From Patescibacteria group bacterium (GTDB taxonomy: Bacteria; Patescibacteriota; WWE3; JAMCXX01): a DNA stretch of 64,000 bases. The notes beneath the pieces are model-generated. The model was not told the origin of the DNA, did not search any database, and saw only the letters and a list, made by a program, of their open reading frames with translations. Below, piece by piece: positions 2,220 to 35,832 of this stretch. Within the stretch, counting starts at the first letter, position 1. Every line of letters starts with the position of its first letter. The stretch covers positions 196,217-260,216 of the forward strand of contig JAMCXX010000002.1 in NCBI GenBank assembly GCA_023474425.1. The letters are read 5' to 3'. A program made the position numbers and the translations under genes.

Positions 2220-5200
2220 ATGCCCCTCGCCCAAAGTTACTCTTCAAATCCTCAAGCGAAAAGAAATCAGGATGTTGGCCCTTCTCCCTTTCAGCAGATG
2301 AGCTCGGCTTTCGCCGGCGCCTCGGCCAACCCTCTTCTGAAAGTAGCGCAATACACCGTTCTGCCGGCCGCCGAAAATATTCCCATTTTAGGCAAGCCTA
2401 TTACATTTCTTAAATGGGCCACCGACCCGGTGGGGGAGCTTAAAAAATCCCTCAATATTTCTCCTTCGGTGGGGGCCGCCGTCAAAGAATCAATTATCAC
2501 CAACGCCGTAGCTTACGCTACGAAAGTTTACGCGGTATCGGCGGGCGTTGCCTCCGGTCAGGGGCAGATTACCACCGATCTTGTACAAAACGCCATGGCC
2601 TGTGAAGCCGCCGATTACGCTACTAAAGCCGCGCGCAATCCTACCAAATTTATAATTCAGGAAACCTGGAACGGTCTTGTAAAGGGCGGCTGGTTTTTTG
2701 ACCGGTTTATTTACGATAAGCGTTATGTTTTTTGGCATGACGAAACCGGTAAGGCGTCCAAATGGGAAGCTAATCGCATCGCCAAGAAATTTGGATTGAA
2801 AGGCGAAGATTTAAGGTTCGGTTCCCAAGCCTTTAAGGTTATAAATGTTGACAAGCCGGGAGGCCTAACCCCGGTCTTAAAGGTCGGGAAGGTTACCTGG
2901 CAGATTGCCGGTCCCACTGTTCTGGCCGCCGTCCTCTTCCCCCCTCTCGCGCCGGTAGTTTTGGCCTGGCAGGTAGCTAACGCCAGCTGGAGCGACTTTG
3001 TCATCAAACATCCGGTAGTACCGGTTCCGCCCGACCCCAACTTGGTGGGCGCTCCTCTTGAGGCCGGCCGCAGCAAGGGCGGAAATAAGAATCTGCTTCG
3101 GGATGTTAATCGCGAATGGGTAGCCGAATCCAGCGGCCAGACTTTTAAGTGGTACGAACTCAACAATATTGCCGACGATAAGATTCGCCGTTGGAATAAA
3201 GTCTTTAAAACGGTTAACGATTTTGCCACCGTTCGTGGTCTTTATAATACCCTGGTTACCGGCAACACCTTGAAAGAAAGAGGCTGGGCAATTCGCGGTG
3301 GTTACGCCGACCAACGAATTCGCTTTGGCAGTGGCGCCGGTGAGATTAATGAACTATACGCCAGGGCCAGCGTTTTTAACCGTGGCCGCGGACGTCATTT
3401 TCACCCCGGGGTTTTAAGGAGGCCGGATGGAAGTGTAATCACAATCCATCCCGGTCAAAAGATTAGCGGCAAACAATGGAGCCACCTGTCTGCGTCGGTA
3501 AAATCCAACTCCAGTCGGTTTTTCCGCGGGGCCTACCGTTTTCAGCAATTTGCTTCCAAAATTGGAGTGCCAGCGGCTCTAGCCGTTCTTTTGCCCAACC
3601 CGGCCACTTGGGGTTTCGCCGCTTTTATGGTGGCACGGAATTTGGGAAGTGTTTTGGAGCCCTTAAAGTGGGTCGGCTGGAAGAGTGTTGAGTACACGAG
3701 TTCCCAGTTTATTGCCAAATACGGGTTAAAGTACGGCACGGCTGCGGTTAAGAATATTGGGCCGTTGGTTTTAGTCTTGGAAGATAATGGGACAAATTTT
3801 CTGCGCCGATGGCTCCGGCGTTTCTATTCGGTGCTGCATCCTTTTGACCGGGACGTTGGGGTTTTGGCTGGAGCCGTTGCTTGGCGGGATCGGCAATGGG
3901 CAACTATTGTCCGCTCCTTTTGGCGATCCAGCAATGGTTTGAGACTTAGGGCCACCTTTATTAAGTATCCCTGGATTCGGCAAACGTTTGATTTTCTAAA
4001 AAAACTGCCCGGAGCCGGAACCGTTGCCGCCGTCGGCGGATTTTTCTTAGGCGGACTTAAGTGGGTTTTGGCTCCCGGTCAGGCGATTAAAGATGCCGTC
4101 GGCAACTTTATAAAGTGGACGGCTTGGCGTGGTTTTCGCTGGGCCCTGGGTAAAGCGTTTCGGAGTTGGTTTAGCCATCCATTAACCGCCTGGCTACAAA
4201 GACAGGTTGCGAGTCTTCCAATCGGCTCCCTGCGCCGAAGTTTTTTTGATTTTCTTTTGCGCCGTCTTCTCGCCCCTGCACCCCTGCCAAAAATTCCCAC
4301 ATCGCCTCTGGGGAAATTCGGGGCCGAACTGGTTAAAGCTTTGGCTCAAATCGGAAAAATGATTTTCCGGTTTGTGACGAAGTTACTTATAGAGGCGGGT
4401 AAGGCGATTGTGAAAATTGTAGTCCAGGTCTTTCAAACCATTAGCGATGCCGTGGCGGCTGTTACCTCGCCGGCTTGGGGGACCGTGGCCGTCATAGTTG
4501 TGGCCATACTGGCAATCTTTCTGCTTCTGGCGCTTATAGTCATTGTCATTTTTCTGGCCTTGGCCTTTGTTTCTTCTATGGGAGCCAGCGGCACCAACAT
4601 GCCGCCCGTGAGCAGTTTTTTGGAGATACGCAAGGAGGTCGCCAACCCCAAGCCTTCCGGTCAGCTGTTTGCGGCGGGGGATACGGTTCAGTATTTAATT
4701 CAGTACGAAGTTAAGAAACCTCTTTCGGGAGCGGTTACTTTTGAAGACAGGTTTTTGATTAGCGGCGTCGATAAAAACGGTGCCACGGTTAAATATTTTG
4801 ACCAGAATTCCCTAAGTTGCCAGAGCCCGGCTTCCATTACTACCGTTACTTTTGCTTCCGATCCCGACGGCCCGCCCGGGAACTGGCAAGGGCTCAAGGG
4901 CACCGTTCCCTATCATGACCCGGGCAACGGCGGGCCGCAGTGGGTACAGTTTAACTGCTCGGCAAAAGTTGACTCCGGCTACAACGGCGGGGTTTTAGTT
5001 AATCACGCCATTATTTCCGGCAACGCCCAAAGCGACGGTAAACTTGTGACCGCCTCACAGTGGTTAAAGGTTAACGGCGGCGATGCTTCCGGCTGGCCCA
5101 CCGATCACGGCTGTTTTGTGCAGGGGCCAAACGGCGCTTATTCACACCAGAACCAGCAAGCGGTTGATATTGCCTCCAACTGGTCCTCCGGCTACAACAT

Positions 5201-8078: not shown

Positions 8079-8474
8079 TTAGTGACAATAACCATAATTA
8101 CCCACAATCGTGTCGGCCGTAGGCCATTTAATATTACCAAAAATATTGACACCAAAAACAGCTCCCAGAATTTGGGTGATGGCCACCACCGAGACAACGA
8201 TGGCCAAGCCCATTATGGCATAGGTAATTTTCTCGCGGGCGTTTTGCGCCGCCACCTTATCCCCGCCGGAAGAGATGTACTGAAAGCCGCCCAAAACCAG
8301 TTGAACCAGAGCAAAAATTCCGGAAATGATTATGACGGCGTTAATTAAAACGCTTAAAAGATTGCCTATATTGGCAAAGGCCACAGCGTCGCCGGCGGCG
8401 GTGGAAACAAACTGCGAGCAGTCCACCCCCGGCACAGCCGCGAGAACTATGTTAGAGAATATCATAGAGAGCAA
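8079..8474 (-). CDS. TrbC/VirB2-type pilin-like protein, paralog 5
   Basis: 131 aa with core GGFQYISSGGDKVAAQNAREKITYAIMGLAIV. It shares a 39-nt identical DNA stretch with paralog 6. Confidence 0.75.
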   Translation of the reverse strand: MLSMIFSNIVLAAVPGVDCSQFVSTAAGDAVAFANIGNLLSVLINAVIIISGIFALVQLVLGGFQYISSGGDKVAAQNAREKITYAIMGLAIVVSVVAITQILGAVFGVNIFGNIKWPTADTIVGNYGYCH

Positions 8475-15465: not shown

Positions 15466-15850
15466 GGGGATGTCAGTTTCGACTAAATGCGGATGAAACT
15501 TCGGCAAGTCAAGTTTGAGCCAGATCTTGGTAAAAAGGCTTAATTAAAATGCCACCGATAGTGTGAGCGAAGTTCCCGTTTACGAGCCAGCTTTTGTCTA
15601 CGCTTGAAACGTGAACCGTCCTTAAAAGCTTTCCCCAGACGAGGCTTTTTTGGGCGTGTAACAGTCTGGGATTCAAGTTTTGCGGGTTTTGGGCAAACCC
15701 GATTCTTGTAATCATCTAAATTGTCCAGCCGGTTGGCTTTTATCCCGGTCTAGCCGAGAGGCCCGCCCGGATTTATTTAAGCTAGATAAGCTTGTAGATG
15801 AAGTTTCTTGATTCATTTAGGACCCCCGTTCAATCGGGGCATCTCCACCA
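15466..15850 (+). ncRNA. ssrA: tmRNA (SsrA)
   Basis: The 5' end GGGGATGTCAGTTTCGAC pairs with the 3' end CATCTCC-A-CCA, giving an acceptor stem with the G3:U70 alanine identity pair. A T-arm CCCCG-TTCAATC-CGGGG is present. Length is 385 nt, directly downstream of smpB. The candidate tag ORF is 15551-15607. Confidence 0.9.
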
Positions 15851-20389: not shown

Positions 20390-22183
20390 ATGGCCAACGA
20401 GATTCAGCAAATTAAAGATAAAATTGACATCGTCGGCCTTATTTCCCAATACGTTCCGCTTAAGAAATCGGGCCGCAACTATAAAGGGCTTTGCCCATTC
20501 CACGCCGAAAAGACGCCCTCCTTTATGGTGTCCCCGGAATTACAGATTTTTAAGTGTTTCGGCTGTTCCGAGGGCGGCGACATTTTTGCCTTCCTTATGA
20601 AGAGAGAGGGCTTAGAATTTAAGGAAGCTTTGGAGGAGTTGGCCAAAAGAGCCGGGGTCAAGCTTTCCAGCTATTCGGCGCCGTCGAATGAGGACCAGCG
20701 GCGCGGCCGACTCCTGTCTGCCTTGAGTTTAAGCTCCCGGTTTTATAACTATTTACTCACGGAGCACCCGGCCGGTCGCGTTGCTCTAAAGTATTTGAGC
20801 GGCCGTGGTCTAACTCCCGAGACGATTAAAAAATTTCTATTAGGCTTTGCCCCCAATGAGCCCGACAGCCTCACCCGGTTTTTGCAGAAAAAAGGCTTTA
20901 GCCTGCCGGAAATTACCGAAGCCGGATTAGCTTTCCGCTCCGACCGCAACAATAAATTCTTTGATCGGTTCCGCGGCCGAGTTATGTTTCCTCTTTTTGA
21001 TTCCCGCGGTCAGGTGATTGGCTTTTCGGGCCGTTTGATTAAAGAATCGGGGGATGCCCCAAAGTATTTGAACAGTCCGGAAACGCCGGTTTTTAGCAAA
21101 AGCCGATTTCTCTTTGGTTTTAATCTGGCCCGCCCGTTTATTAAAAAGGCCGGCCGGGCGGTCCTGGTTGAAGGGCAGATGGATCTTATTAGCAACGTCC
21201 AGGCCGGCGTGGAGAACGCAGTGGCCACCTCGGGCACGGCTTTGACCGCCGACCAGTTAAAGATGATTAAAAAGCTGGCGCCGGAAGTGGTGTTTTGTTT
21301 CGACGCCGACGAAGCGGGACAAAAGGCTTTGGAGAGGTCGGTGGAGCTGGCTGAAGCCGAAGGTTTAACCAGTTTAGTCTCGCCCTTGCCCTTGGGTGTT
21401 AAAGACCCTGACGAAGCGGCGCAAAAAAAATTAGCCGAGTGGCAGGAGAGTTTGGCTAAACCCCTTTCTTTTTACGATTATTACTTTAACCTAAACACCG
21501 CCAATCTTTTAAAAAGCGACGCTTTGGGTAAAAAGAGAGCCGCCGATAAACTGTTGCCGATTCTTTCAAAGATAATTGACCCTCTGCAGAAAGCCCATTT
21601 TGTCAAAAAATTAGCCGAAAGTTTGGATTTGGAGGAGCGTTTTGTTCGCGAGGCTTTGGATAAAATGGTTGTCCCGTCAGACCGCGCCAAAGCCGAGGAC
21701 CGTCTAAGCTATCGGGTAATCGAGGGGTTAAAGGGACCAAAGCGGGCCGAAACCCTGCGCCGCTATGTTTTGTGCCTTTTACTGCGGTTTGATTTTTCCC
21801 TGGGTAAGAGGTATATTGGCAAGCTCGCCGCCAAGGATTTTGCCGGATCAGAAACCCAGCCCATTTTTACCCGACTTAAAGAAGTTTATAATGAGCGCGA
21901 AAGGAGTTTCGACCCGCTTGCCGTAAAAACCGGTTTGGCAGAGGAACCCGCCCGCATCTTTGAAGAATTAATGCTTTCTGACCTGGGCGAATTTGAGGAG
22001 GATAAAGGTCTTCAGGAAAAGGAGCTTGGCGCCGTGGCGGCGGAGTTAAAAAAAGAGACCCTAAAGTCGGAAGTGGAAGTACTCCTTGCGGAAATTCGCC
22101 GCGCGGAAAAGGAAAATGAGAAGGAGGAGCTTAAATCCCTGCAGGTCAAGCTTAACAACCTTTACCAAAAGCTTAAAGATTAG
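20390..22183 (+). CDS. dnaG: DNA primase DnaG
   Basis: 597 aa with the zinc-ribbon [34 protein letters not shown] and the TOPRIM region [10 protein letters not shown] ... FCFDADEAG. Confidence 0.9.
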
Positions 22184-22212: not shown

Positions 22213-23469
<1,257 letters not shown>

Positions 23470-23480
23470 ATCCCATAGTC

Positions 23481-23509
23481 TTGACAGATTACTAATTTGA
23501 TGCTATAAT
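23481..23509 (+). promoter_or_regulatory. perfect consensus sigma-70 promoter (TTGACA-N17-TATAAT)
   Basis: TTGACA at 23481-23486 is followed by a 17-nt spacer and TATAAT at 23504-23509, 12 nt after the rpoD stop. The next convincing start codon is 256 nt downstream at 23765. Confidence 0.6.
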
Positions 23510-23640
23510 AAAGGGGTAAAACTGAATAAGGACCACCCTACGCTAAAGCTTCGGGGTGGCAGGGGAGAGCCCTAAACCACTCGTTCTGCTCGGGTGTTAG
23601 GGTAAAACATAAGGCCATTGTTACAGGGTTTTGGTACCAT

Positions 23641-23681
23641 CGTCATTCTGGCTTGGGCGCTGAGCGCCCCTTGTCCAGAAT
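23641..23681. repeat. CGTCATYCTG-family element, copy 2 (truncated)
   Basis: The sequence is cgtcattctggcttgggcgctgagcgccccttgtccagaat. Inverted repeats are attctgg/ccagaat and the inner palindrome is gggcgctgagcgccc. It lacks the terminal gaatgacg arm. Confidence 0.5.
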
Positions 23682-23764
23682 CCGTCTCTCCAAGATCTAA
23701 AATAACGGCTTTATTGATTATTGAAAGCACAACAAAAACTCACACACACTCGAGGAGGTGTACA

Positions 23765-24187
23765 ATGTCAGCTTGGATTAGCATTCGGGACGAGCACGGA
23801 GAGCTGGTTTTCAGCAAAAAGATCGGGCGGCACGCCGGTTGTGTGCTCGAATACGGTGTCAAGACCGAGCGGGGCACAGGTGCCGAGGCAAGCTGGACCT
23901 ACAACTACGACGGGGTTTGGAACGAAATCGATTGGAACCCGATTCAGTGGCTGAAGGAGAACAACGGCTGCGTTAAAGCTGACGCGAACGTTGTTGCCTT
24001 TCTGTTCACACAGTTGTTGAGGGTCCACAAACTGCCCGACCAGAATCGCGACCGCCTTGCTTCGGAGCGGCCGAGTACAAATGATCTGTTTGATGCCACC
24101 CCCTTGAACGCTGCAGGTATGCTTGTTTGGATTCTGACCTGGCTCATGGAGCCCGGGGCAGCGTCCATTTGGCTCGGCCTGCATTAG
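23765..24187 (+). CDS. hypothetical protein (GC-richer foreign-looking module)
   Basis: 140 aa (MSAWISIRDEHGELVFSKK...). A strong SD reads cgAGGAGGtgtacaATG. Codon third positions are visibly GC-richer than in neighbouring genes. No family recognised. Confidence 0.55.
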   Translation: MSAWISIRDEHGELVFSKKIGRHAGCVLEYGVKTERGTGAEASWTYNYDGVWNEIDWNPIQWLKENNGCVKADANVVAFLFTQLLRVHKLPDQNRDRLASERPSTNDLFDATPLNAAGMLVWILTWLMEPGAASIWLGLH

Positions 24188-24201
24188 AACGGCAGGATAC
24201 C

Positions 24202-24378
24202 GTGAACCTATCACAAGATCGGTTCGTGGTTTCCCTAAGACTTTTGAAGAGGTTCGAAGGTCTGGGGGAGAACATTCGGCACTTTGAAAATCAACTGGGG
24301 TATTCGGTAATTGGAAGTGTAGAAGTAATCTATATTTCCAGCTGCCGATTACCCCTTTCGCCAGCCGGCGAATTGTAA
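24202..24378 (+). CDS. possible small protein (58 aa)
   Basis: A GTG start lies in frame with track ORF 24127-24378, giving VNLSQDRFVVSLRLLKRFEGLGENIRHFENQLGY... The SD is weak. It would fill the gap between two module genes. Confidence 0.25.
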   Translation: MNLSQDRFVVSLRLLKRFEGLGENIRHFENQLGYSVIGSVEVIYISSCRLPLSPAGEL

Positions 24379-24438
24379 AGAGTTTAAGGGCTTGGGTGCC
24401 AAGTCCTGAGACGAGGTTAATCACAAAAGGAGCACAAA

Positions 24439-24885
24439 GTGAAAAGTCGCTTGAGCAACAATCAGAGCCACGAGCTGAGGTTATTCGAGACTCTGATGGC
24501 TCGGGTCGAAGAACTTCAAGAATTAGACGGATTGGATCGGCTCAAAATCGAACTGCACGAATGGGGGTTCTTTATCACCATCGAAGAAGAATCGCAATTC
24601 GAAGTAGTCTATTGGGTCGGTCTCTACATTTATCGAACGCCACTTCGCGTCGAGGCCAAGAATGCCAACGATTCCCAAAAAGGACCGAAACCCTTTAGGG
24701 AAACGAGGAAGCTTCTCCAGCGGCTTATCCAAGAGATTGAGTCCCAGATTTGTTGGGCGACGCGGGACGCACAAATCGAGGAGCAAGGGCCAGACTATCC
24801 GGATGAGAGAGAAGAAGGTGAGCCGGAAAGATTCACTGAAGTCAACTTGGGCGACGATGCTGGGGGCTTTAAGATATACGAATAA
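24439..24885 (+). CDS. hypothetical acidic protein (GC-richer module)
   Basis: 148 aa with a GTG start preceded by aAAGGAGcacaaaGTG. The C-terminus is acidic (EEQGPDYPDEREEGEPERF). No family recognised. Confidence 0.55.
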   Translation: MKSRLSNNQSHELRLFETLMARVEELQELDGLDRLKIELHEWGFFITIEEESQFEVVYWVGLYIYRTPLRVEAKNANDSQKGPKPFRETRKLLQRLIQEIESQICWATRDAQIEEQGPDYPDEREEGEPERFTEVNLGDDAGGFKIYE

Positions 24886-24907
24886 CCGCCAACCGGTTAC
24901 GGCAGCA

Positions 24908-24950
24908 AAACGCGCTTTGAGGAAATATTCTTGAGGCGCGTTTGTCGTTT
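24908..24950 (+). terminator. possible stem-loop terminator of the 23.5-24.9 kb module
   Basis: aaacgcgc (24908-24915) pairs with gcgcgttt (24936-24943), followed by a T-rich tract gtcgtttctgttcccttttt. The loop is large at 20 nt. Confidence 0.3.
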
Positions 24951-24992
24951 CTGTTCCCTTTTTGTTCCACGATCGTGGAGGTAAAAGGGAAA

Positions 24993-25502
24993 TTATTTTG
25001 TGGTTTTGAGGAATTTGTAATGTAATTTGTGATTTAGGGTTTTAGCCAGTTCAAATCCGCCAAAGAATAAAGCCGTATAAGAAAGGTCGCCCAAAACCGT
25101 GTTTCTAAAGAAGGGAATGGCGGCCGTGTAGCAGGCAATTAGCCCAGTCAGATTGTGAGGATACCAGCCTTGCGCCCAGACGCCGAAGTTTGTTACCACA
25201 AAAAAGAGGACCGAAGACAGAAGGGCAGAGGAAAGAATCGTGAAGGGAGATTTATGATTTCTCAGCCATAGACCGGCAAGCCCGATTAAAATAAAACTTC
25301 CGTAAACATAGAACATGGTTGGACCATAATAGCCGCTAAGTATGAGGTCGGAAACGAGCATTGTTAGGAGGGGAATAATAATGGCGTCTCTTTTACGAAG
25401 ATAAGCGCCGCCAAAAAGGGCCAGGGCGGCAATTGGCGCGAAGTTGGGCGGGTGGGGCAAAAGGCGGGATAAAGCTCCCAGTAATATAAAAAAATACACC
25501 AT
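24993..25502 (-). CDS. polytopic membrane protein (DUF6580-like, putative vitamin transporter component)
   Basis: 169 aa with 5-6 TM helices. The N-terminus LSRLLPHPPNFAPIAALALFGGAY resembles proteins usually paired with DUF4430. The assignment is from memory only. Confidence 0.4.
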   Translation of the reverse strand: MVYFFILLGALSRLLPHPPNFAPIAALALFGGAYLRKRDAIIIPLLTMLVSDLILSGYYGPTMFYVYGSFILIGLAGLWLRNHKSPFTILSSALLSSVLFFVVTNFGVWAQGWYPHNLTGLIACYTAAIPFFRNTVLGDLSYTALFFGGFELAKTLNHKLHYKFLKTTK

Positions 25503-25519
25503 TAAAAATTAGGTCATGT

Positions 25520-25930
25520 CTACTCCGGTTTTATAAACCGCCACTCAATCTTTTCCCTGTCTTGGCAGTGGTAGCTGTCGGCGCTTTCCGTGGCTGATTT
25601 TCCGTCAACAAAAAAAATCCAGTCCCTGCCGTCGGTCCCGTTTTTAACCCCGTTTATGGCTGTAATCATTTTGCCGAAGGAGTAGATTTTAACTTCCACC
25701 TGATTTTTGGCGGCTCTCTCCAAAAGGTCAAAGGCCGTTTTTTTAGGTTCACAATTGTAAGAAAGATTTGGCGTTTGAGTTTGAGCCGAAGGGGTGCCCT
25801 GGGCGTTTTGGCTTACGGGGGGAGTTGTTTCCGGCGCCCGCAAGACTTGACGAAGTCTTGGTTGAATGGCTACGGTTACCGCTAAATAGGCCGCCAAAAG
25901 AATTAAGAGAACGGCAATTTTTTTAGTCAT
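25520..25930 (-). CDS. DUF4430 domain protein (transcobalamin-like binding domain)
   Basis: 136 aa with a signal anchor. The C-terminal pattern FDLLERAAKNQVEVKIYSFGKMITAINGVKNGTDGRDWIFFVDGKSA...EKIEWRF is typical of DUF4430. Confidence 0.55.
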   Translation of the reverse strand: MTKKIAVLLILLAAYLAVTVAIQPRLRQVLRAPETTPPVSQNAQGTPSAQTQTPNLSYNCEPKKTAFDLLERAAKNQVEVKIYSFGKMITAINGVKNGTDGRDWIFFVDGKSATESADSYHCQDREKIEWRFIKPE

Positions 25931-25954
25931 ATTTAGAATTATTCAAGGTTAATC

Positions 25955-27535: not shown

Positions 27536-28073
27536 AGAACTTTGACAACCGCCTGGATTAAGCTAAAATAGACCTGATGGCGAAAGAAAACCGAAAGTAT
27601 AAAGATAGAGCCTCATACATGGTTGCCGCCGTTTCCAAGAGGCGAAAGCGCTTAAAGGAGATGGCTATTAAGCTTAAAGGATCGAAATGCAACTTTTGTG
27701 GCTATAGTCGGTGCGTTGGTGCTCTTGAGTTCCACCACATCAATGAGGGAACCAAGAACTTTGACCTCTCCACTCGAGGACTTACACGCAGTTGGGACAA
27801 GATCAGAGAAGAACTTAAAAAATGCATTTTAGTCTGCGCTAATTGTCATCGGGAAATCCATAGCGGTTTACTGCAGCTTCCGAAGGTAACTTCGGTTGAA
27901 AAATTGGGTGAACTGTCGGGAAGCCTAAATTCCGTTTAGCCGGAACAGGGTAATCCGCAGCCAAGTCCCGACGCAACGGTCGGGAAAGGTTCAGAGACTA
28001 TGCGCCCAATCCCGAAACGTAAAGTCGCCGGGAAAGAGATAGTCCAAGCCTTAAAGAAATTTAGGGGCACTTG
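27536..28073 (+). mobile_element. group I intron in the tRNA anticodon loop
   Basis: Conserved core elements are present: Q-like AATCCGCAGCCAAGTCC (27952-27968), R GTTCAGAGACTA (27989-28000) and S AAGAGATAGTCC (28034-28045). R and S give the GACTA/TAGTC P7 pairing. With this register the 5' exon ends in U and the intron ends in G. The intron contains an HNH ORF. Confidence 0.75.
27577..27939 (+). CDS. HNH endonuclease (intron-encoded, putative homing endonuclease)
   Basis: 120 aa with CNFCGYSRCVGALEFHHINEGTKNFDLS...LVCANCHREIHSG, the HNH pattern CxxC...HH...N...CxxCHxxxH. It lies wholly inside the intron. Confidence 0.8.
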   Translation: MAKENRKYKDRASYMVAAVSKRRKRLKEMAIKLKGSKCNFCGYSRCVGALEFHHINEGTKNFDLSTRGLTRSWDKIREELKKCILVCANCHREIHSGLLQLPKVTSVEKLGELSGSLNSV

Positions 28074-28206
28074 TAAGCGCTGCGTCGCAGGTTCGAATCC
28101 TGCCACCGGAGCCATAAACCACTCACTTCGTTCGCTCATGGCTATAGCCATCGAGTAAAAACGAAGGGAGTCGAATGTGCTGAGCGAAGTCGAAGCACTA
28201 CCCTTT

Positions 28207-28393
28207 GTGTGCCACGTCTATATTCTTAGAACTTCCAATAACAGCCTTTACATAGGACAAACCTGTAATATCTATCACCAACCGAATTAAAGATCATCAA
28301 GGAGAAAAGGGAGCTAAATATGTTAAAGATGAAGGCAAGAATTATGTGCACAGCTATTAATCCGAGGATAAAGCAGGAAACTTCTACACCTAG
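28207..28393 (+). pseudogene. decayed GIY-YIG nuclease gene (frameshift plus stops)
   Basis: Frame 1 reads VCHVYILRTSNNSLYIGQT... and stops at 28288. The +1 frame continues IKDHQGEKGAKYVKDEGKNYVHSY*SEDKAGNFYT*. It resembles the intact GIY-YIG gene at 17925-18185 and likewise sits about 90 nt downstream of a tRNA. Confidence 0.5.
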
Positions 28394-28947
28394 TAGGCGC
28401 CGAAAACGTTTAATTGGCGAACGGTACTCATACACCCCTTTTTTGTTGCTGGTCTTGAATCAAGTATCTTTACTACGTCGTTCCCAAACTTTGAATAGAA
28501 CAAGCAAAATGAGAGAAAAGCCGATAAAGAAAATTGTAACAGATGACAATTCGGTCAGATTTGGGCAATCAATGAACCGTCAGGAAAAGCAATTGACAGG
28601 TCGTGATTCGTAACCGGGGTTTAAGTAATTTAATGTTAGTAATAAGAAAAACGGTATGGATAGAACCCAAACGGTAACGATTATTTTCTGTGTTGTGCCC
28701 ATAAACACTTAGGTATTGTTTAAACAAAAGAAGCAACAACCATCGTTGCTATCGGCGGTCGAGCTTAAAGACTTACGCACGGGTTGCCCCTTCGTATCTT
28801 GAAGTCCTGCGAATAAACGCTTTTGCGGGCGGATTAAGTTGTGAATATATTTTAACTTGTTAGTTTTAGATTATCAACGGCAATTAAGCAGGTGTGTAGC
28901 GAACGATTGCGAGATCTGACCTTATAGTGCTATCGTGTCTATGCTTT

Positions 28948-29649
28948 ATGACTTACAGTCAGTTGGTGAAAAAACTGAGAGAAATAAAAGAAAGAGGCTT
29001 TGTTAGGACCCACAGGGCTAATGACACCGGTATTGGAAAAACACTCGAGGACCTACTTGGAATAAAAGAGAACAATCTGAGAGTGCCGGATGTTGGTAAG
29101 GTTGAACTCAAAGCAAAAAGGTTAGGTTCTGGCAGTATGTTGACCTTAGCCACGAAATCCCCAGAACCTAAAGGTGCCAATAAGGCATTATTTGAGAGAT
29201 ACAAATACCTAGATGAGTTTGGATACTACAACCTTCATTCCACAATCTGCGGTTCTAAGTCTAATCCTCAAGGCTTCAAACTCGCTTTTAAGGATGGGAA
29301 GCTAATGATTGAAAATAGCGGAGACATCAATGTCTATTATCCATTATCAGTCTTCGCCGATGTTCTAGTTTCTAAATCAAATAAAATACTTCTCGTTTTT
29401 GCGGAAACTAAGGGTGAGCCCAAAACTCTTAATGAACGTTTCCACTTTGTGGAATCTTATTTGTTAGAGGGACTCGATTTCGATAAGTTCAAGAAGGCAG
29501 TGGAAAACGATAAATTAAAGGTAGATATCAGAATTGGTGTTTATAGAAGCGGAAAGTCAAAAGGCAAGTTCCACGACCACGGGACCGGATTGAGGATAAG
29601 TAAAAGGGATTTCTTGGAGCTATTCGCCAGTTATAAACAGATTATTTAG
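28948..29649 (+). CDS. BcnI/MvaI-family type II restriction endonuclease
   Basis: The first ATG is at 28948; the track GTG is at 28927. MTYSQLVKKLREIKERGFVRTHRANDTGIGKTLEDLLGIKENNLRVPDVGKVELKAKRLGSGSMLTLATKSP closely parallels the BcnI N-terminus as I recall it (VGQILERQFGVQENNITLGDLGEFELKGMR...SNLTLF). Confidence 0.7.
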   Translation: MTYSQLVKKLREIKERGFVRTHRANDTGIGKTLEDLLGIKENNLRVPDVGKVELKAKRLGSGSMLTLATKSPEPKGANKALFERYKYLDEFGYYNLHSTICGSKSNPQGFKLAFKDGKLMIENSGDINVYYPLSVFADVLVSKSNKILLVFAETKGEPKTLNERFHFVESYLLEGLDFDKFKKAVENDKLKVDIRIGVYRSGKSKGKFHDHGTGLRISKRDFLELFASYKQII

Positions 29650-31534
29650 TCTTCCTTAGTATTAGAATGCTCTCCTTGGTCATTGTTTCTTCGAGGGCCC
29701 CAACCACGTTAGTAGGTGAGTTCTTGCTTGGCATTCTTTTCCCAGGAATACTTCTAACGATAATGTCCTCGCACAAAAACCCAATGTTCTCCGCCAACTC
29801 CGTTATTATAAAGTCTGTGGGAACCCTGACCTGTTTAACTAGCCTGTTTCCTACAACAACACAAAAGTACTTATTGTCTTTAAGAATTCTGTGAGCTTGC
29901 CGGAGACATTCATCAAGACCTAGGTAGAAACTTAGTACATCTCTGGCTCTGGCCTTATCGCTTCGCTCTATCTGTGATAGGACCTCTTTTAGATATTCGG
30001 ACTTGAGATTGTGTTCCAGATCTTTGGTTGGTCGGCCGCCCAGTAATTCATTATCTACTTTGCTGGCAGTATTCGGATCATCAAACATGTCAATCCATTG
30101 AGCCGAAAGTCTGGAAAACTGCCCATAGGCAACAGTTGTTCGACTGTCTCCGTAGGGTGGCGAAGTAACGATAAGGTCAATGCTGTTTTTCTCAATAATC
30201 GTATCTTTTGAGGTATCACCGTGAATAACCTTTGCCCAAGTATTATTGTTAACGTCCTTGAAGAACTCCCCCATTCCCTTAATGTTTGACTCAGCCTTTT
30301 TTCTGAAGATTGACAGAACATTGGGATTATTTTGGTCTAGTTTCTCTGGATTTATACGAACCAGTTTAAACTCTCCGTTTTTGGTGTTTGACGAAAGTCT
30401 AACAGTCTCGCTAAAAGCAACCATGAAAAAGTTCCTAACCCCTTCGTCATGTATTTCTTTAATTGCTTTTTTAATTTTTCCTAACTCTATAACCACGCTA
30501 TCCTTGAACCAGAAATCTATATTTGTGAAATTAGGTCTTTGAGTATCGCTTTCTTTGACTTTGGTTATTCTATTCAACAAGTCGAGATATTCCTTTGTAA
30601 GGATAGATGGGTCAATCTCTGTAGTTTTCGCTTTGGCAAGAAAGACAGCTAAGGGATTAAGCTCTATGCCATAGGCATTTCTTCCAAGTAGCCGGCTTTC
30701 AACCAAAGCCGTACCGGAGCCGCAGAAAATATCGCAGATAGTATCACCTTTATGGCTGTACGTCTCAATCAATCTTCTAGCGATTTGAGGTATGAACATA
30801 GCGGGATAAGTGTGGAGACCGTGCGTATAAGATTTGGTTTCTTCGCCTCTGTAGTCCCACGAGTAGTCTATTCTCCTGTTCAATTTTGATTGGGAGTTTG
30901 TGGCTTGGTTGGACTGGAATTCGAGATTTCTTATAATCTTTACTACAACCCCTCTGACTTCTACGTCCTCTCTAAAAATTGGAAGCATGGTTGGATTGGC
31001 CGGTTGTAGCCTTATTCGGTTATCTTCCCTGTAAAACTTTTTAAGAGTTGCTTGGTCCTCATCAATAATGGCCACAACCGTCTGACCGTTATCCGCGACC
31101 TTTTGTTGACGTAAGACGACAGTATCCCCATCGGAAATTCCCTCGTTTATCATGCTGTTTCCTCTGACACGAAGGGCGTAATAATCACCAAATTTTCCCA
31201 GATTATCCCTTGTGATGGTGATAGTGTCGGTAGGGTTTTCTATAGCCTCAATTGGTTCTCCAGCGGCAATAGTTCCTATTACGGGGACTTCTAGGGTCTC
31301 CGTGTTTTTTTCGATAGGTGATATTCCACGGGCTTGGTTGTTCTCCTTTAAAAGAAAGCCCTTGTCCTTTAATGTTTTTACATATTGATGAATGGTAGAG
31401 ATGGCCTTAAGTCCGAAATGAGAACTGATTTCCTCAAGGGACGGGGCATAGCCTTTTTTCTTAGAGTGGGAGGTTATAAAGTCCAGCACCTTCTTCTGTT
31501 TTGGAGTTAAAAGTCTATTGACTCTTTTAGGCAT
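29642..31534 (-). CDS. LexA (wHTH + S24 peptidase) fused to an SPPY-type (probably N4-cytosine) DNA methyltransferase
   Basis: 630 aa. Residues 1 to about 205 align along the whole of E. coli LexA: LTPKQKKVLDFI, ARGI, the cleavage site IAAGEP, the Ser motif VRGNSM and the Lys motif ATLKKF. The C-terminal part has MTase motif I DIFCGSGTALVES and motif IV LIVTSPPYGD. It is convergent with the REase gene and overlaps it by 8 nt. Confidence 0.8.
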   Translation of the reverse strand: MPKRVNRLLTPKQKKVLDFITSHSKKKGYAPSLEEISSHFGLKAISTIHQYVKTLKDKGFLLKENNQARGISPIEKNTETLEVPVIGTIAAGEPIEAIENPTDTITITRDNLGKFGDYYALRVRGNSMINEGISDGDTVVLRQQKVADNGQTVVAIIDEDQATLKKFYREDNRIRLQPANPTMLPIFREDVEVRGVVVKIIRNLEFQSNQATNSQSKLNRRIDYSWDYRGEETKSYTHGLHTYPAMFIPQIARRLIETYSHKGDTICDIFCGSGTALVESRLLGRNAYGIELNPLAVFLAKAKTTEIDPSILTKEYLDLLNRITKVKESDTQRPNFTNIDFWFKDSVVIELGKIKKAIKEIHDEGVRNFFMVAFSETVRLSSNTKNGEFKLVRINPEKLDQNNPNVLSIFRKKAESNIKGMGEFFKDVNNNTWAKVIHGDTSKDTIIEKNSIDLIVTSPPYGDSRTTVAYGQFSRLSAQWIDMFDDPNTASKVDNELLGGRPTKDLEHNLKSEYLKEVLSQIERSDKARARDVLSFYLGLDECLRQAHRILKDNKYFCVVVGNRLVKQVRVPTDFIITELAENIGFLCEDIIVRSIPGKRMPSKNSPTNVVGALEETMTKESILILRKTK

Positions 31535-31600
31535 TAATATTATTATAAACCGAAGACTTTACGAAGGTCAAGGGGTATTTATTTAGGGGTGAGGAAAATT

Positions 31601-31912
31601 ATGGCAAATGCAAACACAGTTATCATTCAAGGATATACATTTCAGGGTCCATGGGGTATAGAAACGACGTTTATCGACGTGCCTGGGGTTTATGTGATCT
31701 ATACGAATCAGCATTGGTTGGATGTTGGGGAAACCGATAAGTTAGGTCAGCGAATCAACGGGAACAACCACAAGAGAAAGCCTGACTGGATTAGGAATGC
31801 TCAAAGTTACCCCATCTGGTTAGCCTTTCTGGGAATTTCAAGTCCTGAAGAGCGTAGGAGAATAGAGTCTCAACTTAGATTAGCGTTAAACCCCCTTTGT
31901 GGGGATAGATAG
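31601..31912 (+). CDS. small GIY-YIG-like domain protein
   Basis: 103 aa from ATG 31601; the track GTG is at 31589. PGVYVIYTNQHWLDVGETDKLGQRINGNNH supplies the GIY, YIG-like and R..H elements, and PEERRRIESQLRLALNP supplies the later Glu/Asn. The stop lies 2 nt before the next gene. Confidence 0.5.
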   Translation: MANANTVIIQGYTFQGPWGIETTFIDVPGVYVIYTNQHWLDVGETDKLGQRINGNNHKRKPDWIRNAQSYPIWLAFLGISSPEERRRIESQLRLALNPLCGDR

Positions 31913-31914
31913 CC

Positions 31915-33453
31915 GTGAAAATAAGATCACTCGAAATAACAAACTTTAAAAGGTTTACCGATTTAAAAGTAACTGTTGGGAACGCTACTCAGAAATTGGT
32001 TGTGTTGATCGGCCCCAACGGCTCTGGTAAAAGTTCTATATTCGATGCTTTTGAGCAGATCGGCGGGAGGCAAAAACCTGGATTTGGCGAAGATCAGACT
32101 TACCTGAGGAAAAATCAGGCCCTAGATTGGACGGTGGTGATTGACAGCGACTTAGGAATTTTCACAAAAATTGCCCCAACTCCCAGGAGCCATTTCTATT
32201 TAAGATCTTCTTACAGATTTGATCCTGATTTCCAGAGTGGGTCCATACAACGGAAGGACGAGTTGTTAGGGGATTCTTTAAGGCCAAAGAAGATGATTGA
32301 ACTAGATAAACGAGTTCAAGATAACTACGAAAGATTAGTGGGAACAACGGTAGACGCTCTTTACTCTAAAACTAAAGATTCACTTACAGTTGGGCAACTT
32401 AGGGAAGAATTGATCGGAAAGGTACGCGAAAGGATGCAAAAAGTTTTCCCCGACTTAATGCTAGAGGGGCCAGGGAATCCATTGGTTGAAGGACAGTTTT
32501 TCTTTACAAAGGGTAATTCTCAACACTTCCCATATAAGAATCTGTCTTCAGGAGAAAAGGGTGCCTTTGATATCTTACTAGATTTGATTATAAAAACTCA
32601 GGAATTTAATAACACTGTGATCGCAATTGATGAACCAGAACTCCATATGCATTCTGGGTTGCAGAGAGCCCTGCTTAAGGAGGTTTACGACTTGGTACCT
32701 AACGCATGCCAACTTTGGGTAGCCACACACAGCATAGGCTTTATTCGTGGTTCCTTAGAACTTCTAAGGGCTTATCCCGATGAAGTCGCTTTGCTAGATT
32801 TCTCGGACGTTGATTTTGACCAGCCACAAAATATTAAACCCATTCCTCCAACCGTCGAGAGAATAAGAAAGATATTTGAAGTAGCAATAGAAGATCTAGC
32901 AAACATGTTAGTCCCTTCCAAAATCATTATTTGTGAAGGCTCGCTGATTGCACCAAACGATTCTCCAAAAAAAGAGTTTGATACAAAGATTTTCAGTATA
33001 ATATTCGGTGGTGAGGATGTTTTATTTATTTCAGGGAATAGTAAATCCGCAGCACAAAAATCAGCAGAGCTCCTCCTTAAAATTGTTCAGCAATCTGGTT
33101 CCGTTAGAAACATTCAAAGTATCGTTGATAGAGATAGTCTGACGCAACAACAGATAGACGAGTTTAAAAAGCAAAGTCAAAGTCAGAGGTTTTTATCCAG
33201 AAAAACAATAGAGAATTATTTATTGGATTCTGAGATCATCGATAAATACTGCAACTGTCATAACATTGCTACTGCCAACGTTACATCGAGACTGGCGAAC
33301 ACCATTGATGATGATGCGAAAAGGATTCAGTCAGCGGTGATGCAGCAATGTTCTTATAGCGGAAATGTGGAAGATTTTAAACTGGAATTGGCCAAATGTG
33401 TTTCACCGGACACACAGGTTTATAAACAACTAAAACAAGACATTGATATATAG
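31915..33453 (+). CDS. ABC-type (AAA_21-like) ATPase fused to DUF4435/TOPRIM-like domain (OLD/PARIS-like defence protein)
   Basis: 512 aa with Walker A GPNGSGKSS, signature-like LSSGEKGAF, Walker B VIAIDEPELHMH and H-loop WVATHS. The C-terminal 200 aa carries KIIICEGS...D, SIVDRDSL and TIENYLLDSEII, matching the DUF4435 pattern (xEG, DRD, ENYL) as I recall it. Confidence 0.6.
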   Translation: MKIRSLEITNFKRFTDLKVTVGNATQKLVVLIGPNGSGKSSIFDAFEQIGGRQKPGFGEDQTYLRKNQALDWTVVIDSDLGIFTKIAPTPRSHFYLRSSYRFDPDFQSGSIQRKDELLGDSLRPKKMIELDKRVQDNYERLVGTTVDALYSKTKDSLTVGQLREELIGKVRERMQKVFPDLMLEGPGNPLVEGQFFFTKGNSQHFPYKNLSSGEKGAFDILLDLIIKTQEFNNTVIAIDEPELHMHSGLQRALLKEVYDLVPNACQLWVATHSIGFIRGSLELLRAYPDEVALLDFSDVDFDQPQNIKPIPPTVERIRKIFEVAIEDLANMLVPSKIIICEGSLIAPNDSPKKEFDTKIFSIIFGGEDVLFISGNSKSAAQKSAELLLKIVQQSGSVRNIQSIVDRDSLTQQQIDEFKKQSQSQRFLSRKTIENYLLDSEIIDKYCNCHNIATANVTSRLANTIDDDAKRIQSAVMQQCSYSGNVEDFKLELAKCVSPDTQVYKQLKQDIDI

Positions 33454-33474
33454 ATATAAGGAGGTGAAAAAATA

Positions 33475-33786
33475 ATGGATTTAAAAAATATTCAGCCGGA
33501 GCATATATTGTCATTTTTAATATTCTTTATTGGAACTTTAGGACTGGTTGTTTTAAACGCTTGGTATGCCAATATATTTAAGGTCGGAGCGGAGAAAGAT
33601 GCGGCGGTAAGTGTTAAGGAGGCAGGAATAACTTTTGTGTCAGGCCACTTTCTCGCTTTCTTTGTTTTGCCCTTCGCCATAGTTGTTGGAGCTTCCTTAG
33701 CGATCCTGGGCAAACTTGATTCAGGCGTATCAGCAATTATTGGTGTTGTCATTAGCTATATTGTGCAGAAAGTAAATATCAGATAA
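33475..33786 (+). CDS. small three-TM membrane protein
   Basis: 103 aa with a strong SD (taAGGAGGtgaaaaaataATG). TM helices are ILSFLIFFIGTLGLVVLNAWY, FLAFFVLPFAIVVGASLAILG and AIIGVVISYIV. Confidence 0.55.
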   Translation: MDLKNIQPEHILSFLIFFIGTLGLVVLNAWYANIFKVGAEKDAAVSVKEAGITFVSGHFLAFFVLPFAIVVGASLAILGKLDSGVSAIIGVVISYIVQKVNIR

Positions 33787-33834
33787 TTGCCTATCCAGTG
33801 AGCCTGCCCAAAATTGGGGATAGATTATTTTTCT

Positions 33835-34566
33835 ATGAATATTGATTGGGAAATAACAGAAGAAGATATTAATAAAGTTAAAACTATCGTTGAAGAACAA
33901 AAAAATAGACCGTTCGTCCTAAATAGGTTTAAAAGGAATATTGAAAAAATTGGAATCAATATTTCAGAAGAAAGCTTATGGAAGTTCCTATTACAGGCAT
34001 TACTTACTACTCAAGAGAAGTCGGGTCCTGGGTCCTCAGTGGACAATTTATCTAACGAAAGACCTTTTCCTCTAAGTATGTCCGAAATTAGTACTAAGGA
34101 CGACAAGCGGGCTTATATTTTAGATGTACTAAAAAACCACAGACTTCGATATTACAACAATAAAACAGACTGGATATTTCATGATTACACTATACTAACT
34201 CAAGAATCTATTAAGGCATTGATTAAAAATCTGACCAGTCTTATTGGCAATGATTCTATGCAGCTTGAAAGAGCAGCCGTCCATCAAATAGCTGACAAAT
34301 TTAAGGGCATTGGACCAAAACAATCGAGAAACTTTTTACAACAGCAAGGATTAACAAAATATGTCCTACCTATCGATAGCAGACTAACCAAGTGGTTTAA
34401 CGATAATAAACTATTTCCATTTGCTATTGACCCAAGCTCTTTATCAAGCATTAACTTTTATGAGTTTATAGAGGATGGGGTGTATAGGTTGTGTGAACAA
34501 GCTAACATTTACCCCTGCATTTTAGACGCTTGTATATTTGTGAGTTTCAATAAAGGTGATTATTAA
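33835..34566 (+). CDS. HhH-GPD superfamily (Ogg2/AGOG-like) DNA glycosylase-like protein
   Basis: 243 aa from ATG 33835; the track TTG is at 33814. The helix-hairpin-helix region FKGIGPKQSRNFLQQQGLTKYVLPIDSRLTKW resembles GIGxKxASxFLRxxGxxxxxILDxH of archaeal-type Ogg enzymes. Confidence 0.45.
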   Translation: MNIDWEITEEDINKVKTIVEEQKNRPFVLNRFKRNIEKIGINISEESLWKFLLQALLTTQEKSGPGSSVDNLSNERPFPLSMSEISTKDDKRAYILDVLKNHRLRYYNNKTDWIFHDYTILTQESIKALIKNLTSLIGNDSMQLERAAVHQIADKFKGIGPKQSRNFLQQQGLTKYVLPIDSRLTKWFNDNKLFPFAIDPSSLSSINFYEFIEDGVYRLCEQANIYPCILDACIFVSFNKGDY

Positions 34567-34639
34567 ACTAATTTTTTTTTGAACCAAAATAGCGACCTAT
34601 ACCCGTTCCGTTCTATAACTAAATAGGGAGGTTTCAACA

Positions 34640-34918
34640 TTAGGTTTTCTTAGTACTTCTACTTATGAGTATGAGTATTAAAAATGTGAGAAACGATCCC
34701 AAGAAGCCCGCTTCTAAAGATACCCTCAAAGGTTCGTATTTGTTGCTTACGAATTGTAACGCTTTCCAATCGATTAAAGTCGCGAGCCAGTCCGTGACAT
34801 TCACAAAAGGTATATTTACAAATGCTACCAGCAGGGCTATTCCGCATGAGAAAAGAAACCCATTCACTAAATTTTCAACAAGACTCTTCGAGAACAATGT
34901 GTTGTTTTGCTCGTCCAC
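34640..34918 (-). CDS. small two-TM membrane protein
   Basis: 92-aa ORF in the AT-rich island with helices FLFSCGIALLVAFVNIPF and FLGSFLTFLILILI. No family recognised. Confidence 0.35.
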   Translation of the reverse strand: MDEQNNTLFSKSLVENLVNGFLFSCGIALLVAFVNIPFVNVTDWLATLIDWKALQFVSNKYEPLRVSLEAGFLGSFLTFLILILISRSTKKT

Positions 34919-35114
34919 CTCTTAATTCTATTGCTAAATAGCATACCGGGGCAAATTAGTGATGTTTACCTTATTGCTGGGAAATCAAACTAAAAACCTT
35001 ATCTTTTCTAGCCCCTCTCTTATATCCTGTACCAACTTAAAGTCCTCAAATACCTGTATGATACCGTTAAGATATGTGGTTCTAAGGTTACGTCCCTCGA
35101 GCCAAATTGGGTAG

Positions 35115-35402
35115 CTAGTTAATGGTATTTTTGGAAGACTTTCCGTAGCGGAACCAACCTACTAATATTACCGTTCCAAGGATAACTCCTAATATATTGG
35201 GGATCATGACCGGCGGACTTTTCAATTCCAACCCGTAGAGAATCCAAACGGATGACCCGAACACCATTATTACATACGATGTGGGAGCAATATCCCTAGC
35301 GCTCTTTGTCCGGAAAATTTTAATTGCCTGAGGAAGACTCCCCAATCCCAAAAGAACGCCCGTTATTGTTGCCAGGCCTGCGAGTATTGTCATTAAATTC
35401 AA
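35115..35402 (-). CDS. SemiSWEET (PQ-loop) sugar transporter
   Basis: 95 aa with three TM helices and the PQ motif GSLPQAIKIFRTKSARDI. Confidence 0.75.
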   Translation of the reverse strand: MNLMTILAGLATITGVLLGLGSLPQAIKIFRTKSARDIAPTSYVIMVFGSSVWILYGLELKSPPVMIPNILGVILGTVILVGWFRYGKSSKNTIN

Positions 35403-35553
35403 TTTATCACGGGCCGAAAGCCTTGTATATTGCCTCTAGGCGGTCGCGCCAGCGACAAATTCCTACGGTTTTAGTTCCTTCGTGGGCGGACGAATTTTTA
35501 ACGCTGGGTTCGGTAACTTTCCGGTCGGCAGCAAATTTGCTATTGTCAAAGTG

Positions 35554-35832
35554 ATGAAAAAGAGGATAATCTTCGGTTTAATTACGGCGGCGTTAGTTCT
35601 AATTTTGGCCCTGGGGGTCAACCAATTTTTGGTTTTGCGAAAGGCCCACAGCACGTTTAATAATTATTACGCCTTCCGCGGCTGTGAAAAACTTTTGGAA
35701 AAAACTTCTGACTTTGGCACGTGTCAGACGGCCAACGGCCGGACCATTAAAATCGTCAAATTCCACGACAAGTGGTATTTAGAGGGTGACCTCCCCTGGG
35801 CCTGTTTAGGTAACGTCTGCTTCGGTTTGTAA
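35554..35832 (+). CDS. small signal-anchored protein
   Basis: MKKRIIFGLITAALVLILALG is followed by a Cys-containing soluble part. The track ORF begins earlier at 35482, but its N-terminal extension looks non-coding. Confidence 0.5.
   Translation: MKKRIIFGLITAALVLILALGVNQFLVLRKAHSTFNNYYAFRGCEKLLEKTSDFGTCQTANGRTIKIVKFHDKWYLEGDLPWACLGNVCFGL

Follow-up and report, generated by a model that had tools for sequence, protein, structure and literature searches.

The stretch of DNA considered here, called the window throughout, is 64 kb long and comes from a metagenome-assembled genome of the Patescibacteria (candidate phyla radiation, CPR); all positions refer to the whole window. Our subject is a block of 1523 nt (23470–24992) that follows the sigma-factor gene rpoD and reaches to a convergent gene for a DUF6580 protein, the gene order being dnaG, rpoD, block, DUF6580 (− strand) and DUF4430 (− strand). 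The reading that we develop below, and to which we give a probability of about 60%, is that the block is a lineage-specific accessory transcription unit lodged in a hypervariable slot between the convergent rpoD and DUF6580 genes. Its features, including two open reading frames (ORFs) with their Shine–Dalgarno (SD) sequences, are as follows; z denotes the deviation of folding energy from that of shuffled sequences.

23481–23509, + strand: sigma-70 promoter TTGACA-17-TATAAT with an extended −10 TG, 12/12 consensus positions (TTGACA 23481–23486, TATAAT 23504–23509)
23516–23532, + strand: predicted transcript start GTAAAACTGAATAAGG, conserved with the related locus L096 (GTAAAATCGAATAAAAGG)
23533–23604, + strand: hairpins 1 and 2, found in this genome only; one composite fold is possible instead
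23609–23716, + strand: hairpin 3, long (108 nt), with a basal 23 bp formed by the arms 23609–23634 and 23685–23716 and a variable apex
23717–23764, + strand: A/C-rich spacer, mostly unpaired by prediction, with SD GAGGAGG at 23752–23758, then 6 nt and the ATG at 23765
23765–24187, + strand: ORF1, 140 aa, GAGGAGG-N6-ATG
24188–24438, + strand: inter-cistronic spacer of 251 nt with about five hairpins
24297–24355, + strand: near-perfect 59-nt hairpin with a 25-bp stem, within that spacer
24439–24885, + strand: ORF3, 148 aa (MCL5003932), GTG start after AAGGAG-N6
24908–24991, + strand: tandem 3′ hairpins (z = −6.25)
24908–24943, + strand: canonical intrinsic terminator with a T-tract
24954–24991, + strand: palindrome facing the convergent DUF6580 gene

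The accessory nature of the block emerges from a comparison of five related Patescibacteria loci at the same junction, the window among them. The relatives are not especially close: their rpoD genes are 73–77% identical to that of the window in nucleotides (the RpoD protein of L002 is 78% identical), and a search of about 15 billion proteins returned no relative at 90% identity for RpoD, DnaG, DUF6580, DUF4430 or ORF3, apart from a shorter start-codon variant of ORF3. Other contigs carrying the window locus in the Logan assemblies are all 100% identical to it. In all five loci the rpoD|DUF6580 junction is conserved and its contents differ:

L095: the two stop codons lie 15 nt apart
L099: 67 nt (range 67–127 nt); a promoter at 11/12 with TG and, after about 50 nt, a terminator
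L002: about 1 kb; an 11/12 promoter followed by a structured leader of 170 nt (z = −4.5), an ORFan of 124 aa that is unrelated, and a GC-rich hairpin with a T-tract (visible in the sequence, although the terminator scan did not call it)
L096: more than 770 nt, up to the contig end
Window: 1523 nt

The boundaries are sharpest between L002 and L099, whose flanks are 83–87% identical: homology ends exactly at the rpoD stop codon and restarts inside the DUF6580 C-terminus, from which it follows that the block is accessory. All four occupied slots begin with an 11–12/12 promoter directed away from rpoD, and the conserved DUF6580/DUF4430 operon (24993–25930, − strand) is where homology between the window and its relatives picks up again. 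As a separate matter, positions 787–880 of L099 form a tiny candidate small RNA (sRNA), and its transcript enters the 3′ end of DUF6580 in antisense orientation.

The preliminary description of this DNA, made from the window alone, had raised the possibility of a horizontally acquired cassette and had suggested that its presence be checked in related genomes. The acquired-cassette reading is supported: the block is absent or replaced at the same junction in relatives, its tetranucleotide usage deviates more than that of 99% of host 1.5-kb windows, and homologues of ORF1 sit in unrelated gene neighborhoods in the few assemblies that have them. The same description had held the third codon positions of the downstream ORFs to be GC-rich, unlike those of the host, which is true of one ORF only. 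The GC content of third codon positions (GC3) is 0.688 in ORF1, a value that none of the 119 host windows of 140 codons reaches (mean 0.547, standard deviation 0.050, maximum 0.674), while that of ORF3 is an ordinary 0.564 and that of the intervening 'ORF2' is 0.475. The block as a whole carries a mildly foreign signature.

As first described, the promoter TTGACA-N17-TATAAT begins 12 nt after the rpoD stop codon (23467–23469), so that a gap of 11 nt without a terminator of rpoD's own separates the two; it matches the consensus at 12/12 positions and is the only exact match on either strand of the window, in which two sites with at most one mismatch were found against 0.25 expected. From its position, transcription is inferred to start near 23516. 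Downstream, between 23510 and 24907 on the + strand, there is no terminator-like site and no promoter-like site upstream of the start of ORF1 or ORF3, the sole promoter-like match being a 9/12 site at 23739–23766 that overlaps the ORF1 start codon. Transcription of ORF1 and ORF3 would therefore rely on the 23481–23509 promoter or on read-through from rpoD.

The promoter and the ORF1 start codon are separated by 255 nt that are rich in hairpins. The 249-nt leader RNA is predicted to fold at −79.2 kcal/mol, compared with −65.9 ± 4.7 kcal/mol for shuffled sequences (z = −2.8), and its minimum-energy fold consists of two domains. At least three strong hairpins had been proposed here. Folded singly, hairpin 3 reaches z = −5.2 and hairpin 2 z = −3.7; hairpin 1 is weak (z = −2.1), and the two upstream hairpins jointly reach z = −2.5. 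Directly 3′ of hairpin 3 lies a U-rich tail, TTTATTGATTATTG. Judged as a Rho-independent terminator, hairpin 3 has a tail, TGATTATT, with 5 T in 8, a 108-nt stem-loop and an AU/GU-rich base, and it was not called by the terminator scan. All hairpins of the unit fold far better on the + strand, the basal stem of hairpin 3 reaching −21.4 kcal/mol there compared with −11.1 kcal/mol on the − strand, and this asymmetry argues that the structures form in the transcribed strand, as RNA, and not as a DNA cruciform. Scanning the leader against Rfam, as had been proposed, returned no family: the Rfam 15 covariance models, applied to 23400–25100 at gathering thresholds and at E up to 10, gave chance-level matches alone (E ≥ 0.26, far under gathering), and no leader match was obtained on the window, the region or ten related loci, nor in L096 at E up to 1. 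The possibility that the 5′ arm of hairpin 3 encodes a small peptide (MLQGFG..) was also considered. Two differences between the window and L096 are of the synonymous type, but the idea is not supported, as the frames of the 3′ arm differ between the two genomes and a proper SD is lacking.

Part of this leader recurs in L096. The two loci have in common the 12/12 promoter with its TG, the first 15 or so transcribed nucleotides and the base of hairpin 3. The promoter and 5′ start align at 79.7% over 59 nt (blastn). The 3′ arm of hairpin 3, TCTCTCCAAGATCTAAAATAACGGCTTTATTG, is identical at 32/32 positions, and the 5′ arm, AAGGCCRTTGTTACAGGGTTTTGG, lies within a segment identical at 35/41, compared with 76.6% identity of the two rpoD genes over 1074 nt. 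By our own arithmetic, the chance of 32 straight matches at 77% identity is about 2e-4. The shared basal helix comprises 21 invariant pairs and 5 G-U pairs. The apex of hairpin 3 differs (about 50 nt in the window, about 120 nt with an internal duplication in L096), L096 lacks hairpins 1 and 2, and homology stops right after the 3′ arm of hairpin 3, the remaining sequence being unrelated; 3′ of the shared arm, L096 continues with 480 nt without an ORF and then a new SD-ATG. A covariance model built on hairpin 3 (R1) found its two source sequences alone in 279 kb of related loci, and none in L095, L099 or L002.

Hairpin 3 is also where assemblies break. In two independent Logan samples that contain this genome (SRR10252151 and SRR10267473; contigs L001, L100, L101 and L102), the contig bearing rpoD ends at 23650 and the contig bearing the cassette starts at 23623, the two overlapping by the 28 nt ACAGGGTTTTGGTACCATCGTCATTCTG (23623–23650) in the 5′ arm of hairpin 3. 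An assembly break of this kind usually reflects a shared k-mer with more than one context in the sample, which suggests that ACAGGGTTTTGGTACCATCGTCATTCTG has more than one context in both metagenomes, either as a second copy or as a structural variant.

Turning to the proteins, ORF1 starts as first described (AGGAGG-N6-ATG at 23765, the SD extending to GAGGAGG) and is a gene, annotated by NCBI as hypothetical protein M1352_01525 on a contig of 278,831 bp. Its product is acidic (pI 5.5), soluble and Trp-rich. The downstream ORFs had been said to belong to no recognizable family, and indeed searches of Pfam, PHROGs, PADLOC, NCBIfam and PDB sequences gave no match for ORF1, 'ORF2', ORF3 or the ORF1 family; ORF1 nevertheless has real, if unnamed, homologues. 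When 1.84 billion representatives were searched exhaustively with phmmer, five homologues emerged that are full-length or nearly so (32–43% identity, E 1e-17 to 1e-11), a sixth match being a spurious repeat protein aligned over a 30-residue motif alone. A profile search enlarges the family to about 12 members (E 1e-35 to 1e-56), none with a Pfam domain, and the source names among them are Patescibacteria and Candidatus Collierbacteria only, other members being unlabelled. The homologues are 31–39% identical to ORF1 in pairwise comparison, and ten members share 19 invariant columns, including W44, T45, N47, Y48, W52, E54, P59, P91, R97, A111, T112, P113, N115, A116, W122 and W126, and ORF1, at about 140 aa, shows the family pattern W-T-(Y)-N-Y-x3-W-x-E-x4-P followed by A-T-P-x-N-A-x5-W-x3-W. 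The family to which ORF1 belongs is thus far rare and has no name. Models from AlphaFold2 without an alignment were useless, with a confidence (pLDDT) of 37.5 for ORF1 and 50.4 for ORF3.

The homologues of ORF1 keep varied company. In Collierbacteria the genes downstream of the homologue encode a radical-SAM enzyme and an aminotransferase-like protein: in L087, L088, L089 and L091 it is followed by a 291-aa radical-SAM enzyme and then by a gene of 310–315 aa, and in four loci this third gene weakly matches aminotransferases. The radical-SAM gene of L090 is called at 266 aa, whereas L092–L094 end before or within that gene. This set may represent a small modification pathway, which is absent from the window. 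In L083, a 1-Mb genome, the homologue is the first in a series of small unknown genes, and genes for an integrase and a TraG-like protein lie a few kilobases upstream; in L082 it stands alone. The idea that the leader is conserved along with the ORF1 family does not hold, for the regions upstream of the homologues in Collierbacteria, L082 and L083 have good promoters and different, mostly short leaders unrelated to that of the window.

Beyond ORF1, the preliminary description had counted two or three ORFs and had overlooked the spacer between ORF1 and ORF3, which is far more structured than the leader (z = −7.2 compared with −2.8; −103.3 on the + strand compared with −77.1 on the − strand) and contains the 59-nt hairpin with z = −9.6. 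'ORF2' (24202–24378) lies inside this hyper-structured spacer, its codon score is not frame-specific, and it is missing from both the NCBI annotation and the Logan gene calls; it is probably non-coding and was rejected as a gene. ORF3 is probably a gene and an orphan: its SD is good, its codon score is best in frame and its GC1/2/3 values of 0.59/0.33/0.56 form a coding-type pattern, whereas a word-indexed homologue search found ORF3 alone and no ORF3 homologue adjoins an ORF1 homologue. The encoded protein is acidic (pI 4.7) and soluble.

Taken together, these observations fit best with a leader that is an independent promoter–hairpin RNA module, conserved in part, to which lineage-specific sequence has been added. 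Whether it was a leader serving the genes behind it or an independent non-coding RNA had been left as alternatives, and the evidence leans to the latter; hairpins 1 and 2, which had been stressed, are not conserved. An independent module is favored over a leader dedicated to ORF1 because in L096 the shared elements (promoter, 5′ start and hairpin 3 base) precede completely different downstream sequence, and because the homologues of ORF1 elsewhere have short, unrelated leaders. Under this scheme the housekeeping sigma holoenzyme would start near 23516 at the perfect extended −10 promoter, and the first 200 nt or so would fold, as the computations, the conservation and the strand asymmetry suggest, into two genome-specific hairpins and hairpin 3. 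The module of promoter, 5′ end and hairpin 3 base would then probably act as a stand-alone structured RNA or as a stabilizing and partly terminating 5′ element, and not as a dedicated sensor for ORF1. Pausing or partial termination at hairpin 3 and its U-rich tail would yield an RNA of about 200 nt together with read-through transcripts, and the latter, given the lack of another promoter, would cross the A/C-rich spacer and strong SD into ORF1. The 250-nt hairpin stack beyond ORF1 would likely provide processing or 3′-stability sites, for example RNase III-type duplexes, ORF3 would be translated from its own SD, and the tandem terminators, with the consensus terminator at 24908–24943, would close the unit.

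Among known arrangements, the closest description of the block is that of strain-specific genomic islets, the ORFan cassettes that lie in intergenic hot spots between convergent core genes. Like these, it is present, absent or replaced at a fixed junction, has an atypical composition, encodes small proteins with few or no homologues and brings its own promoter and terminator. It is unlike ordinary islets in that a near-consensus promoter opens each of the four occupied slots and that two of them share a promoter–hairpin module in front of different cargo. The early operons of phages offer a second likeness, with their consensus promoters, small acidic proteins and stems of at least 20 bp between cistrons (e.g., the RNase III sites of T7). 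Here, however, neither protein nor the leader has a phage or viral homologue, no other phage genes lie nearby, and RNase III cleavage of the stems is only putative. Searches of IMG/VR, INPHARED and PLSDB (including tblastn against phages and IMG/VR) gave nothing except a chance 36-nt match, and the phage, defense and toxin–antitoxin families represented among PHROGs, PADLOC, Pfam and NCBIfam profiles gave no match to the unit's proteins.

Several points weigh against the reading of the block as an accessory unit with an RNA module at its head. The module is known from two sequences only, and with an invariant basal stem there is essentially no covariation; the conservation of its sequence could equally reflect a protein- or DNA-level site. 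The GC3 value of ORF1 is an outlier by only about 2.8 standard deviations. ORF3 has no homologue, its codon usage falls at the 2nd percentile of host genes, and it may not be a real gene. The start site, termination at hairpin 3 and processing are all deduced from the letters of the sequence.

The alternative that survives best, although we consider it unlikely, is that the leader is a cis-regulatory RNA (a riboswitch, attenuator or thermosensor) with ORF1 and ORF3 under its control, hairpins 1 and 2 switching with the composite fold or with hairpin 3 serving as a conditional terminator. It is plausible in that ORF1 lacks a usable promoter, the minimum-energy fold pairs hairpins 1 and 2 in an alternative way that excludes their separate formation, and hairpin 3 ends in a U-rich tail. 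A dedicated regulator is harder to reconcile with the lack of an Rfam match even at E up to 10, with the missing hairpins 1 and 2 in L096, where the conserved part stands before unrelated downstream sequence, and with the short or unrelated leaders of ORF1 homologues elsewhere.

Slightly less probable still is the view that the promoter–hairpin module is, at the DNA level, a 'landing pad' for insertion or recombination, just downstream of which unrelated cargo is swapped as on an integron platform. The resemblance is real as far as it goes: an integron platform (a Pc promoter, attI, promoterless cassettes and attC hairpins) likewise has a strong resident promoter ahead of variable, unrelated small ORFs at a fixed site, imperfect palindromes between ORFs and a sharp homology breakpoint beside a conserved site. 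In the present case the homology between the window and L096 stops immediately after the perfectly conserved 32-mer, the cargo differs in every relative, the ORF1 homologue in L083 sits among integrase and TraG-like genes, and in two samples the Logan contigs are interrupted within the hairpin 3 5′ arm. An integron proper was rejected, since no IntI or other recombinase-family match occurs within about 10 kb among the ORFs screened (precomputed Pfam over 23.6–32.5 kb plus ten further window ORFs, which is part of the ORFs and not every one), and a regular-expression search for attC core pairs (inverse core RYYYAAC, or R″, and core GTTRRRY, or R′) on both strands of 23470–24992 found 0 pairs with 0.35 expected. 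Target-site duplications and terminal or flanking direct repeats around the insert were likewise at chance level. Unlike those of integrons, the hairpins are unrelated to each other, G-U-rich and RNA-like; a further difference is that every ORF comes with an SD and that a terminator closes the unit. The 5 G-U pairs of the stem and its poor fold on the other strand speak for RNA, and the landing pad too would have two known instances only. A more speculative variant, which we regard as improbable, has the conserved module as a resident landing pad whose 32-nt 3′ arm is the target of an unrecognized cassette exchange, operating without a nearby integrase and possibly RNA-templated or RNA-guided, through which these Patescibacteria would replace the ORFan cargo behind a strong promoter that stays in place; under it, the assembly-graph branch in the hairpin would represent co-existing cargo variants or extra copies.

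Equally improbable, in our estimation, is that the stems, hairpin 3 included, mainly form the rpoD operon's 3′ end and act as terminator or stabilizer, with the transcript from the promoter a by-product and the ORFs non-functional or newly arisen. Transcripts of rpoD must enter the region, there being no rpoD terminator before 23481, the slot of L099 consists of a promoter, about 50 nt and a terminator only, and ORF3 is an orphan with poor codon adaptation. Yet a 12/12 promoter kept across genomes that are 77% identical is unlikely to be idle, ORF1 belongs to a conserved protein family, and hairpin 3, at 108 nt and uncalled by the terminator scan, would be a non-canonical terminator. As for a divergent copy of a known housekeeping RNA beside the sigma-factor gene, such as 6S RNA, we think it very improbable, since the RNA (about 205 nt in the window and 218 nt in L096) resembles 6S and other abundant structured sRNAs of about 200 nt in its very strong promoter and largely helical fold, and lies next to rpoD, but has no match to 6S (RF00013-type) or any other Rfam covariance model at E up to 10 (window) or 1 (L096), folds as two domains rather than a single rod, is conserved in its basal stem rather than in a central bubble, and is absent from L095, L099 and L002 and not universal even among close relatives.

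The genes that frame the slot are as follows.

20390–22183: dnaG, left of rpoD
22213–23469, + strand: rpoD, left flank, 418 aa (MCL5003930.1), with sigma-70 Pfam domains
24993–25502, − strand: DUF6580, right flank, convergent with rpoD (MCL5003933)
25520–25930, − strand: DUF4430, right flank, in an operon with DUF6580 (MCL5003934)

In the relative L002, a cobalamin riboswitch lies upstream of the DUF4430–DUF6580 operon (4906–5044, − strand), which links DUF6580 and DUF4430, proteins of unknown function, to vitamin B12; at DUF4430 of the window no cobalamin riboswitch match was found in the only 24 nt there (25931–25954). Elsewhere in the window, a transfer-messenger RNA gene lies at 15466–15850 (86.5 bits; ARAGORN did not call it), and a group I intron lies at 27858–28066 (83 bits), within a locus at 27542–28151 in which it comes after an 11/12 promoter (27542–27569) and a 120-aa Cys-rich ORF (27577–27939). 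This ORF overlaps the 5′ part of the intron and is HNH-endonuclease-like by sequence, without a Pfam match. A sequence resembling a tRNA 3′ half follows the intron, though no tRNA is called at this place by ARAGORN. L095, in which no intron scan was made, shows the same ORF arrangement, and L003 has a group I intron at 8138–8373. Just past the intron-bearing locus is a low-GC island (28200–35600; 0.36–0.42 compared with about 0.48) with defense-type genes, which encode a restriction enzyme of the MvaI/BcnI type, a fusion of an N4/N6 methyltransferase with a LexA/S24 peptidase domain, an AAA_15/AAA_21 ATPase and a protein whose Ogg-HhH match is weak and falls below the Pfam cut-off.

Overall, the locus is an example of how Patescibacteria with very small genomes keep a hot spot of gene turnover beside an essential gene, where the unrelated cargo of the occupied slots sits behind a near-perfect promoter. 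It also defines two uncatalogued items, namely a conserved RNA stem, found so far in two genomes, and a Trp-rich protein family of about 12 members. As it stands, this is a modest gain in annotation, for the block is a fairly ordinary accessory cassette that would hold no surprise for specialists; if, however, the module proved to be multi-copy or tied to the exchange of cargo, it would hint at a new way of capturing genes.

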